From Escherichia coli (lineage in GTDB: Bacteria > Pseudomonadota > Gammaproteobacteria > Enterobacterales > Enterobacteriaceae), in the NCBI RefSeq assembly GCF_036507355.1, contig NZ_AP027877.1: a DNA stretch of 64,000 nt; one strand, written 5' to 3'. The notes beneath the pieces were generated by a model, which saw only the letters and a list, made by a program, of their open reading frames with translations, ran no database searches and had not been told where the DNA came from. Of the stretch, positions 19,899-49,895 are shown one piece after another (the first letter of the stretch is position 1; the number at the start of each line of letters is the position of its first letter). The translations under genes were made by a program, and so were the position numbers.

Positions 19899-21053
19899 TT
19901 ATGCCTGCCACGGATGAATGATTACGCCTTGCACCACGCGGTTAACGGTGCCACTGGCTGATGGGGTATCCGGCGTATTGCCCATGTGCAGCGACTGCAT
20001 CAGTGCAAACGTCTGGGCGTACATCAGGAAGCAAAATGCCTGCTCAACGTCGATAAAGTGACGTGACGGTGGCAGGATGATATGTGGACCGGCAGCGACG
20101 ATGTCGCTGCTTTCCGCGGCGATGGCGATTACACGCATTGCCTGGTTGTCACGGCGAAGTTCAGCCAGCAGATCAAGATCATACTGACGGGTGTAAGGGT
20201 GGCTGGAGACAAATACCACCACCAGCGTTTCGTCATCGACCAGCGATTTTGGTCCATGACGGAATCCGGTTGGAGAATCATAAAAGGCCGCCAGTTTACC
20301 CGCCGTCAGTTCCAGCACTTTCAGCGCCGACTCGCGTGCTGCGCCCTGTAAGCCACCGCTGCCGAGATAAACGATCCGTTTCCACGGTGCGTAACCAAAC
20401 ACACCTTCGCTGAAATCGCCCAGTGAGGTCAGTATCGCCTGGCAACGATCCGCCACGTCGCGGAAGGTTTGGCTGTTGATCGTCTCAGGTGCGAAAACCG
20501 CGAGGCAGCTGGCCATCATGGTGGTAATGCTGCTGGTCATCGCAAAGCCGCGATCGTGCGTTTCTGCGGGCATCAGCAGGGCAAACGCGTTATCGCTGTT
20601 GATCGCGTTTTGGTAAAGAGCGCCCGCTTCGTTGCAGGTGATCGGCAGGTGATAGCATTCCGGTACAAATTGATTTGCCAGTTCCACGGCTGCGACGCTT
20701 TCCGGGCTGTTGCCGGATCGACCGAAGGAGATCAACAGCAGCGGATGGGCTGGGTTCAGGTAGTCCATCGGATTAGTGACCAGATCGGTGGTCGGTACGG
20801 CGCTGAAGTTTTTACCGGTATGGCTGGCGAGCCACGGCGCGATGATGTCACCGATAAATGCTGAGGTTCCGGCTCCGGTCAGGATGATCCGCAGATTCTC
20901 TTTGCGCAGTAACGGTTCAAGGAAGTTATTAAGCGCGGAACGTAGCGCGTCGATGTTGGTGAGTGAACGGATCCATGCGCGAGGCTGTTGGCGGATCTCT
21001 TCTTCAGTCCATGTACCGGTTGCGGCGGCAGCAGGGGTGTAATTTTCTGGCAT
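19899..21053 (-). CDS. agaS: SIS-domain sugar isomerase/deaminase AgaS
   Basis: 384-aa ORF; recognised as AgaS. Confidence 0.85.
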   Translation of the reverse strand: MPENYTPAAAATGTWTEEEIRQQPRAWIRSLTNIDALRSALNNFLEPLLRKENLRIILTGAGTSAFIGDIIAPWLASHTGKNFSAVPTTDLVTNPMDYLNPAHPLLLISFGRSGNSPESVAAVELANQFVPECYHLPITCNEAGALYQNAINSDNAFALLMPAETHDRGFAMTSSITTMMASCLAVFAPETINSQTFRDVADRCQAILTSLGDFSEGVFGYAPWKRIVYLGSGGLQGAARESALKVLELTAGKLAAFYDSPTGFRHGPKSLVDDETLVVVFVSSHPYTRQYDLDLLAELRRDNQAMRVIAIAAESSDIVAAGPHIILPPSRHFIDVEQAFCFLMYAQTFALMQSLHMGNTPDTPSASGTVNRVVQGVIIHPWQA

Positions 21054-21084
21054 AACTCAATCCTTAGTCTGATGAACTTGACGT

Positions 21085-21260
21085 CGGGCGTTGTCGCTTT
21101 CGCTTACCTTTCGTTTCATTTCACTTGGTGATGTCTTTCGTTGATTAAAATCTATAGAAAAGAAACCGAAAGTTCAATGGAGAAAAAGGAAATAAAACGA
21201 AATCTGTGATCATTGAAAGAAAAGACAAGGGAAGATTAAAGAATTGCGTAATGACGTCGC
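21085..21260 (-). promoter_or_regulatory. agaS promoter region with AgaR operator-like CTTTCG/CGAAAG repeats
   Basis: Clustered motifs ctttcgcttacctttcgtttcatttcac, gtctttcgttga, aaccgaaagttc and aaaacgaaatc upstream of agaS. Confidence 0.45.
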
Positions 21261-21273
21261 TATGTTCACCGAT

Positions 21274-21327
21274 TGCCGGATGCGGCGTATCGTAGGTCGG
21301 ATAAGACGCGTTAGCGTCGCATCCGAC
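21274..21327. repeat. REP element between agaA and agaS
   Basis: gccggatgcggcgtatcgtaggtcggataagacgcgttagcgtcgcatccgaca. Confidence 0.7.
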
Positions 21328-21403
21328 ACCGCTGCACAGATCAAAACGAAAGAAAAAGAAAGGCCTTACGGGAGAAGTGAAGGCCCAATAATGGAGCAAA
21401 CCA

Positions 21404-22537
21404 TCAAAACGAAGCTAATTGACCCTGAATCCAGATTTGTTGCACATGCAGCCCGCTATCCAGCGCAACGACGCTGGCGCGTTTGCCCGGTTTAAGCGAT
21501 CCCAGAACACCATCAACACCCAGCATTCGCGCCGGATGCAGCGATGCCATATGAATGGCTTCCGCAGGCGTTACGCCCGTCAACTCGACCATATTGCGCA
21601 CTGCCGCATCAACAGACAGCGTACTGCCCGCCAGCCCACCGGACGCGGTACGGACAACGCCACCGTGCATCTGCACTTCTTCGCCACATAACGTATAGCG
21701 ACCATCCGGCATCCCGGCTGCCTGCATCGCGTCGGTGATCAGCACGATTCTCTCTTTCGCACAGCAACAACACAGCGACATCGCCGCCGGATGCACATGA
21801 TGACCATCGGCTATCAGTTCCAGCCAGGCGCGCTTGTCCGTTAATCCCGCGCCAACCATTCCCGGTTCGCGGTGATGTAAACCTGTCATCCCGTTATAGC
21901 AATGCACCAGGCCGTCGGCACCAGCATCAAACGCGGCGCGAGTTTGTTGCCAGGTCGCCGCGCTATGCCCCAGCATCACTCGTACGTTTTGCTGTTTAAG
22001 ATGGCGTATGGCCTGCAATGCCCCCTCTTTTTCCGGTGCCAGCGCTACCACGCGTAAGGTGTGCTGAGAAACGGCAATCAATTGATCCAGCTCGGCAATT
22101 TCCAGCTCGCGGAACAGCTCTGGGGGATGCGCGCCTTTATTCTGCGGCGTGAAGTACGGTCCTTCGAGATAACTCCCCAGCACTTGCGCACCAGGTCCGC
22201 CGCGTTGGCAACGTTGAGCAATACGTTTCAGCGCCGCATGAATGGTATTAAGCGGCGCGGTTACGGTGGTCGGTAACCAACTGCCGACACCTTCGCGTGC
22301 CTTGTGCATTGCCAGCTTGTCGAGTACATCCGGCGCGTCATCCATTACATCAACGCCCGCACCACCGTGTACATGGGTGTCGATGTAAGCAGGGCAGAGC
22401 AGTTCCGCATCGCGTTCAGTCACGCCCACTGGAATCGGTTCGATTGCTGCGATGACACCGTCAGCAATACGCAACTGATGGTCATCGAGCCATCCCTCTT
22501 CAGTCAGCAGCCTTCTGGCGCGCAGAACGTGTGTCAT
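21404..22537 (-). CDS. agaA: N-acetylgalactosamine-6-phosphate deacetylase AgaA, full length
   Basis: ORF 21404..22558; start placed at MTHVLRAR (377 aa); metal-dependent amidohydrolase. K-12 has this gene truncated. Confidence 0.85.
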   Translation of the reverse strand: MTHVLRARRLLTEEGWLDDHQLRIADGVIAAIEPIPVGVTERDAELLCPAYIDTHVHGGAGVDVMDDAPDVLDKLAMHKAREGVGSWLPTTVTAPLNTIHAALKRIAQRCQRGGPGAQVLGSYLEGPYFTPQNKGAHPPELFRELEIAELDQLIAVSQHTLRVVALAPEKEGALQAIRHLKQQNVRVMLGHSAATWQQTRAAFDAGADGLVHCYNGMTGLHHREPGMVGAGLTDKRAWLELIADGHHVHPAAMSLCCCCAKERIVLITDAMQAAGMPDGRYTLCGEEVQMHGGVVRTASGGLAGSTLSVDAAVRNMVELTGVTPAEAIHMASLHPARMLGVDGVLGSLKPGKRASVVALDSGLHVQQIWIQGQLASF

Positions 22538-25139: not shown

Positions 25140-26420
25140 TTATTGGCCTTCACAGGCTGTGTGGTACTGCGCCAGGATGTCCTGAATATGGTTGATAATG
25201 AGTTCCCGTGGCGTTGGCTGCAGCTCGCCGGAGCGAACTTTCACGTACTGCAGCGGCAGATACTGGCTGATCAGCGGCAGCGGAATTGGTGAATCCGCCA
25301 GATTACGTACCAGATGAGCGAAAGCGTCATCAATCTGGCTGTCCGGCCAGTAATAGCGCACGCGATCCGAGTAGCTATAACCACGCGCCAGACGACGCGC
25401 GTTGCCGTCACCGTGGTAGTGGCTTTGCCAGTATTCCGGGCGGTCGAGCATCACGTTTTCCAGCACCTGACGCAGACCAGAACAGGCTTTTGCTGGCACC
25501 AGTTCTTCTTCAATCGCTGCCAGAGAGAACAGAGCTTCACGCAGGGCGAAGGTCAGCGCCGGGCCAACTTTCAGAATGGCAAAGTGGTCAATCACCAGCT
25601 GGCGCAGCGATTGCGGCGTTTGATAATCGGTAGAGTGCGCTTCGAAAATCAGCGTTTCGTAGTTTTCGACCATCTGGCTTAAGGCGGTCGCTTTGGCGGG
25701 CTGATAATCAATAACGTTGGTGTGATCGAATTCGACGCCGGGTTGAACCACCAGGGCAATGATGCGTGGCTAGATGGCATTCAAACCTTGCTTTTCAAAG
25801 GCGTGACGATGGGCTTCCAGCGTGGCGCGGGCGGCATCCGGCGTGGTGACCGCCAGCTCGCTTAAGGTTTCATGCGCGCCGCCAGGTACCGGCACTTCGG
25901 TACCAATGACATACTCCAAATCGGCTTCGCCAAAGTGTTCGCGACAGGTTTCTTCCGCCACTTTCGCCAGACGGGCGGCGCGTTCAGCCACGATGTCATC
26001 AGTTAAGGGAATCGGATCGTCCTGACAGGACATGCTGCAATCAAGGTGAATTTTTTTGAATCCCGCCGCGACGTAGCTTTTAATCAAATCATCGGCATTG
26101 GTCATTGCCTGAGCGGCCGGCAGGTTTTGCCAGCGGTTTGGCCCCAGATGGTCACCACCCAGAATCAACGCATCCTGCGGGAAATTCAACGAGTCGGCGA
26201 GCTGACAAACAAAGCCGCGAAAATCGGCGGGCGTCATTCCGGTATAACCGCCGAACTGGTCTACCTGATTGGAGGTTGCTTCAATCAGTAACGGCGTTTG
26301 GTTTGCACTGGCGTAGCGGATTGCAGCCTCCAGCACCAGCGGATGTGCGGAACAAACAGCATAAATTCCATTTGTTTTGCCCGCTTTGTGCTGTCTCACC
26401 ATTTCTGTCAGATGTTTCAC
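25140..26420 (-). pseudogene. kbaZ: kbaZ (agaZ) tagatose-bisphosphate aldolase non-catalytic subunit, interrupted by an in-frame amber codon
   Basis: 1281 bp equals 427 codons, the full KbaZ length. One TAG (complement of 25770..25772) sits where K-12 has Trp (...QGLNAI*PRIIALV...); both flanks are in frame and collinear with KbaZ. Confidence 0.8.

Positions 26421-49787: not shown

Positions 49788-49895
<108 letters not shown>

Follow-up and report, generated by a model that had tools for sequence, protein, structure and literature searches.

Expression of the aga genes of Escherichia coli is ascribed to promoters named PR, PZ and PS, and three papers (PMC3668189, PMC4694137 and PMC10101011) state that the repressor AgaR binds to and represses PS, for which they credit the footprints of Ray and Larson (2004). 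These papers also give an approximately 20-fold induction of a PS–lacZ fusion by N-acetylgalactosamine (Hu et al., citing Ray and Larson 2004) and constitutive expression of agaS once agaR is deleted. For K-12, Ray and Larson (2004, as cited in PMC3668189 and PMC4694137) are reported to have shown binding and repression by AgaR, induction by N-acetylgalactosamine or galactosamine and a start of transcription within the agaA–agaS gap. The two aga units are treated as separate operons (PMC10101011), and agaA and agaS show different induction ratios (PMC3668189). Other described arrangements with which this DNA can be compared are the multi-operator repression exerted by DeoR and GlpR in the deo and glp regulons, the REP and BIME repeats of E. 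coli and the intrinsic terminators found just past the last stop codon of an operon.

We analysed the gap between agaA and agaS in a stretch of 64,000 nucleotides of E. coli DNA (hereafter the window), the minus strand of which carries a complete aga/gam cluster. The gene order, agaR (divergent), kbaZ-agaVWEFA and agaS-kbaY-agaBCDI, is syntenic with that of annotated E. coli, and annotated E. coli aga clusters share 99.3% identity with this region, which bears out the names agaA and agaS given to the flanking genes in an earlier, sequence-only reading. The gap measures 350 bp, as it does in K-12, with agaF, agaE, agaW, agaV and kbaZ further upstream and kbaY and agaBCD(I) downstream. Of 5426 complete E. 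coli genomes, 5344 matched a 901-bp probe across it, with identities of at most 99.3%. Open reading frames of 83–84 amino acids within the gap were rejected as spurious, as they cross the REP and non-conserved segments. Elsewhere in the cluster, codon 217 of kbaZ (25140..26420, minus strand) is an in-frame amber (25770–25772), TAG in place of the TGG (Trp) of strains XJ34 and K-12. Among the matches listed from the 5426 complete E. coli genomes, the 61-nt context of this amber codon had no full-length exact match, and the best full-length matches carried one mismatch. The amber codon probably inactivates kbaZ in the source strain, and a polar effect on agaVWEFA is possible.

The gap is the junction of two aga operons, and it contains three independent neighbours: a terminator, a REP element and the PS promoter (Table 1). 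Our joint reading, to which we assign a probability of about 0.88, is that the terminator belongs to kbaZ-agaVWEFA, that the REP is a passenger and that PS is a sigma-70 promoter repressed by AgaR. The sequence-only reading had listed, in order from agaA, a hairpin, a REP and an array of CTTTCG/CGAAAG motifs, and all three are present in that order, with small corrections of their coordinates. It had also proposed an internal promoter for the second aga operon, which corresponds to the published PS promoter (PMC3668189, PMC4694137 and PMC10101011). That reading is thus supported and was already in print, with the caveat that the promoter itself includes neither the REP nor the terminator.

Table 1. 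Features of the agaA–agaS gap and its borders, in window coordinates
Feature	Position	Strand	Remarks
agaS	19899..21053	-	ATG at 21053-21051
agaS Shine-Dalgarno AAGGA	21061..21065	-	Nearly invariant across compared genera
CTTTCG copy	21097..21102	+	Adjoins box 2
AgaR box 2, TTTCGTTTCATTTCACTTGG	21109..21128	+	Inverted relative to agaS; 0 mismatches; predicted +15 to +34
CTTTCG copy	21135..21140	+	Predicted +3 to +8
Predicted -10, TAGATT	21149..21154	-	17-bp spacer; TAnATT kept across genera
CTTTCG in promoter spacer	21167..21172	-	Overlaps last base of -35
Predicted -35, TTGAAC	21172..21177	-	TTG invariant across genera, following A nearly so
AgaR box 1, TTTCGTTTTATTTCCTTTTT	21183..21202	-	agaS orientation; 0 mismatches; predicted -60 to -41
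GATCACA	21205..21211	-	Just upstream of box 1; conserved in most genera
Partial second REP arm, TGCCGGATGCGGCG	21274..21287	+	14 nt; inverted relative to full copy
Full REP copy, GTGTCGGATGCGACGCTAACGCGTCTTATCCGACCTAC	21292..21329	-	100% match
U-rich tail, UUUCUUUUUCUUUCGUUUUG	21342..21361	-	AgaR-like box, 2 mismatches; candidate distal operator
Stem-loop GGGCCUU..AAGGCCU	21361..21386	-	Likely intrinsic terminator of kbaZ-agaVWEFA
agaA stop codon TGA	21404..21406	-	
agaA	21404..22558	-	PGAP name nagA

The gap contains five copies of CTTTCG/CGAAAG (at 21097, 21108, 21135, 21167 and 21347); the full 64 kb has 63, and approximately 0.3 would be expected per 350 bp. The array described upstream of agaS accounts for four of the five, within 21097–21172, and the fifth lies in the tail of the terminator. 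The two 350-bp windows densest in CTTTCG in the 64 kb are the agaA–agaS gap and the kbaZ–agaR gap. A 20-bp AgaR consensus, TTTCRTTTYRTTTYNYTTKK, was reportedly derived by Ray and Larson in 2004. When the whole 64-kb window was scanned with it, allowing at most two mismatches, it gave seven matches against 0.26 expected; three fall in the agaA–agaS gap, four in the kbaZ–agaR gap and none elsewhere in the window. A literature search for the consensus string found nothing, and we added a comparison of k-mers that makes no use of it. Exact 12–15-mers (CTTTCGTTTCATTTC, AAATAAAACGAAA and CAAAACGAAAGA) are common to the two aga gaps and occur nowhere else in the window; box 1 shares a 13-mer with the kbaZ–agaR gap, and box 2 shares a 15-mer.

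These boxes keep their places in other genera. A scan of representative genomes for AgaS yielded 80 loci from taxa including Escherichia, Citrobacter, Enterobacter, Klebsiella, Raoultella, Kluyvera, Salmonella diarizonae, Yersinia and Buttiauxella, among others, and the gap itself was compared in 51 sequences, namely the window and 50 loci in which agaA adjoins agaS. Outside Escherichia the gap is 245–308 bp long, bar one outlier of 1285 bp; in Escherichia it is 343–350 bp. Box 1 stands at approximately -150 from the agaS ATG in about 46 of the 51 sequences and box 2 at approximately -76 in about 49, and in about 48 of the 51 both boxes have a fixed orientation and a spacing of 79–81 bp. The block CTTTCGaTTTCTTT at the spacer CTTTCG is also conserved across genera, and this motif is likely to be an additional AgaR contact. 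By eye, the GATCACA next to box 1 was considered as a CRP site and rejected, since a left half-site is neither present nor conserved. As a separate observation, the agaS of Escherichia albertii NBRC 107761 (96% identity) has a context unlike that in E. coli, with no aga gene detected in 2.5 kb of upstream flank and no AgaR box in the 420 nt scanned. That the CTTTCG density is a functionless by-product of T-rich intergenic composition, as the T-rich aga strand of the gap and a silent generic promoter scan might suggest, is already contradicted and has next to no probability, given the enrichment of consensus matches in aga regulatory DNA only, the k-mers unique to the two gaps, the conserved position and orientation of the boxes and the published AgaR binding at PS (PMC3668189).

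The most strongly conserved block of the gap, ATTGAACTTTCGaTTTCTTTTCTATAGATTTT, is situated between the two boxes and contains the arrangement TTGAAC-17-TAGATT, a predicted sigma-70 core matching at 8/12 positions; a generic promoter scan with a threshold of at least 9/12 called no site in the gap. Like the boxes, this sigma-70-like core keeps its position and orientation in about 48 of the 51 sequences. We predict a transcription start near A21142 because TAnATT persists across genera where the alternative -10 hexamer, TATAGA with a 15-bp spacer, loses its A2; the latter is not kept across genera, with A2 lost in some species, and was rejected. Counted from the predicted start, box 1 is upstream of the core, the spacer holds one CTTTCG, and +3 to +46 are covered by a CGAAAG, box 2 and a further CGAAAG. 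On this reading, the arrangement of boxes and core is a typical repressor layout. The abstract published by Ray and Larson in 2004 is said to describe AgaR sites upstream of the start sites; unlike those, box 2 is placed downstream by the predicted start.

In our main reading, the genes agaS-kbaY-agaBCDI are transcribed from the sigma-70 promoter PS, and AgaR, a repressor of the DeoR family, binds T-rich boxes built of TTTCR pentamers. Box 1 abuts the predicted -35 on its upstream side, with a CTTTCG in the spacer and box 2 and two CTTTCG copies just past the predicted start. With this placement around the core, AgaR occupancy would block the binding or the escape of RNA polymerase, and AgaR is released on growth with N-acetylgalactosamine or galactosamine.

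Compared with the PS of K-12 (Ray and Larson 2004, Mol Microbiol 51:813; cited in PMC3668189 and PMC4694137), the gap is the same locus, and nothing essential differs. Gene order is the same, with agaR nearby, and the boxes of the window match in type those of the kbaZ–agaR gap. Box 2 and the predicted core hexamers are identical in the two strains, and box 1 differs at one position at which the consensus is free. The window has the other allele of the REP upstream, and a few point differences create extra exact CTTTCG copies, such as CTTTCGG where K-12 has CTTTCAG. As in the multi-operator repression of deo and glp by DeoR and GlpR, T-rich boxes at PS lie upstream of, within and downstream of the core; unlike the GlpR and DeoR operator sequences, the AgaR boxes are arrays of pentamers.

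The REP upstream of this promoter is an imperfect palindrome of the GCCGGATG...CATCCGGC type and folds into a stable stem-loop. The extent first proposed for it, 21274..21327, was essentially right, and resolves into a full copy and a partial arm. A 68-nt segment that contains it folds with -30.6 kcal/mol on the aga strand and -32.8 kcal/mol on the other (z of approximately -3). Like REP and BIME elements elsewhere in E. coli, it is an extragenic palindrome of approximately 38 nt between co-directional genes, multicopy in nature and variably present between lineages: a 46-nt probe found a median of 17 places per genome, with matches in 5425 of 5426 E. coli genomes. The window itself has a second copy at 49793–49824 (plus strand), GATGCGATGCTGGCGCATCTTATCCGGCCTAC. 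Searching the gap against Rfam gave only a sub-threshold match to the REP-derived naRNA4 on the REP and a chance miRNA match, and thus no RNA family.

Within E. coli, comparison of the REP region (21274–21331) with K-12 (L002, 4735–4800) and with L083 and L084 revealed two alleles in the same 350-bp gap. The window-type allele, a full REP and a remnant arm followed by unique sequence, is found at approximately 95–99% identity in roughly 2800 genomes, and also in E. whittamii and two Escherichia isolates (L003 and L004). The K-12/O157-type allele, with two full inverted REPs, matches at approximately 90% identity in roughly 2500 genomes. The window does not hold a complete two-REP BIME, because its second inverted copy consists of the 14-nt arm only, as against the two full inverted copies of the K-12 allele, which would qualify. 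The MG1655 record lists no REP at the gap, and none at the yjdN–yjdM gap either, which we take to be the site of REP325; its silence about the agaA–agaS gap is uninformative because it also omits the REP at yjdN–yjdM. In the comparative set, REP-like motifs occur only in the four Escherichia sequences, with an AT-rich spacer in the other genera. Roughly -230 to -170 from the agaS ATG, where Escherichia has the REP, loci L007–L082 contain a moderately conserved AT-rich block, ..TATAGATCAATAAGATA.., which bears a loose likeness to an IHF site (WATCAA...).

Because it is confined to Escherichia among the sequences compared and exists in E. coli as two alleles, we regard the REP as a lineage-specific polymorphic insertion and not as a conserved regulatory part. 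In the Escherichia lineage the REP, with its partial second copy, was inserted into the interval that separates terminator and promoter, and as a passenger it would at most add a 3′ stem-loop to read-through RNA. BIME-type REP pairs bind IHF or gyrase, and one alternative gives the REP a function in aga regulation, for instance as a structural or protein-binding module that might determine the operator spacing or insulate PS; it is placed exactly between the terminator and PS, and other genera have the conserved AT-rich block in the same place. We consider this very improbable, as the REP is absent from all non-Escherichia sequences compared, in which the promoter layout is otherwise the same, as it occurs in two quite different alleles that are each present in thousands of E. 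coli genomes, and as the same sequence recurs about 17 times per genome.

At the agaA end of the gap, the ggcctt/aaggcc hairpin first placed at 21360..21390 was confirmed at 21361–21386. Read on the aga strand from 21386 down to 21361, it runs GGGCCUU-C-AC-UUCUCCC-GU-AAGGCCU, with two inner pairs; it starts 17 nt after the agaA stop codon and leads into a U-rich tail, UUCUUUUUCUUUCGUUUUG, in which U occupies 7 of the first 8 bases. The predicted free energy of a 38-nt segment is -10.2 kcal/mol (z = -2.6). The hairpin was missed by a generic terminator scan on account of its bulged stem and 7-nt loop, and folding and covariation were used instead. Among 35 distinct Enterobacterales sequences, the position of the hairpin is constant while its stem varies (GGCCTT/AAGGCC, GGTTTGTGG/CCACAAAC, GTCTGTCGC/GCGACAGAC and CCCTGCG/CGCAGGG). 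RNAalifold gave eight pairs, all eight with compensatory double changes, and 88% of the cells were paired, as against 71.6% in column shuffles and 29–54% when the partner was slid by 1–3 columns. The aga strand has 20 G.U pairs and its complement 3, which places the selected structure in the aga-sense RNA. The covariation and the strand-specific G.U pairs thus support the claim of a terminator hairpin, and because the stem is kept by compensatory changes, the hairpin is most likely the intrinsic terminator of kbaZ-agaVWEFA.

In its anatomy the element resembles known intrinsic terminators: it is a GC-containing hairpin just past the last stop codon, followed at once by a U-rich tract, and the upkeep of its stem by compensatory changes is the same. 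A stem-loop with a U-rich tail, beginning 17–25 nt past the stop codon in many genera, is by its sequence the anatomy of an intrinsic terminator; that termination takes place at the hairpin itself we infer. Transcripts from PZ, covering kbaZ-agaVWEFA, would most likely end at this Rho-independent terminator and its U-rich tail. What differs from the typical case in Escherichia is a short, bulged stem with a 7-nt loop and a U-tract that contains conserved C's and resembles an AgaR box. Of all the stems compared, that of Escherichia is the least stable, with approximately -10 to -12 kcal/mol where the median across genera is -15 kcal/mol (58 nt including the hairpin), and the Escherichia U-tract is interrupted by C.

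The weak stem, the large loop, the C in the U-tract and the silence of the generic scan would also fit an inefficient terminator, with one long transcript from PZ to which PS adds as a booster, and with the hairpin and the REP serving mainly as a barrier to 3′–5′ exonucleases or as a processing site. REP stem-loops are classic stabilisers of mRNA. We nevertheless judge this unlikely, since a covarying stem and a conserved U-tract, 17–25 nt after the stop codon in many genera, make up a terminator, and since the literature has separate operons (PMC10101011) and different induction ratios for agaA and agaS (PMC3668189). Termination ahead of a separately repressed PS remains our preferred reading.

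The sole mildly new point of the gap is the AgaR-like box in the U-tract of the terminator, which could be a candidate distal operator. Its 12-mer TCTTTCGTTTTG (minus strand; plus-strand complement CAAAACGAAAGA) recurs only in a box of the kbaZ–agaR gap, and CTTTCTTTTYCTTTCG in the tail is well conserved across genera, with C's at fixed positions. The hairpin stands between two identical copies of an 11-mer in direct orientation, reading TTCGTTTTGAT on the aga strand, at 21340–21350 and at 21403–21413, 63 bp apart; the latter copy overlaps the agaA stop codon. As further observations, agaA is missing from many Enterobacterales and at least one E. coli, agaF being followed directly by agaS in L021, L023, L035, L036, L043, L046, L049, L060, L066, L068–L070, L072 and L073 and in the E. 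coli locus L006, and most of these loci keep a U-rich tract and AgaR boxes upstream of agaS.

One possible extension of the main explanation, therefore, is that the U-tract, possibly with TTCGTTTTGAT at the agaA stop codon, acts as a distal AgaR operator that loops to boxes 1 and 2, as for DeoR and GlpR; a possible distal box at PS lies 140–160 bp away. The match to the consensus with only two mismatches, the 12-mer restricted to the kbaZ–agaR-gap box, the repeat on both sides of the hairpin and the persistence of the tract in species that lack agaA are consistent with this, as is a conservation of CTTTCTTTTYCTTTCG far better than that of the neighbouring loop and spacer and in excess of what a U-tract needs. 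By contrast, the distances from the tract to box 1 are 48, 63, approximately 102, approximately 109 and 160 bp by lineage, which are not multiples of a helical turn; without helical phasing across lineages, they give no support for looping, and in this respect PS differs from deo and glp, as neither phasing nor evidence of looping was found at PS. Any U-tract must be T-rich, and the first two pentamers of this one end in pyrimidines, against purines in boxes 1 and 2. In the species without agaA, the tract is accompanied each time by the hairpin, as it always is, and because the tract never occurs without the hairpin, termination alone can explain its conservation. On this evidence, a distal operator at the tract is doubtful, if still worth entertaining. 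The C-punctuated tract would then be a terminator as RNA and a distal operator as DNA, so that one stretch ends the first operon and helps to repress the second, a dual role that we put forward tentatively and think rather unlikely. If it were true, the Escherichia-specific REP insertion would have shifted the distal operator from approximately 100 to approximately 160 bp from box 1.

Taken together, the gap is real but ordinary, because it consists of an operon end signal, a common repeat and a published promoter repressed by AgaR, and its significance beyond correct annotation is slight. What the comparison across genera adds is a clean phylogenetic footprint for both PS and the agaA terminator, and it shows the REP to be a recent polymorphic insertion in Escherichia without a conserved role. 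The gap explains how agaS-kbaY-agaBCDI is expressed and regulated apart from the first half of the aga cluster. This independence of the second operon is relevant here, where kbaZ in the first operon has a nonsense codon, and also in K-12, where agaW–agaA is deleted.
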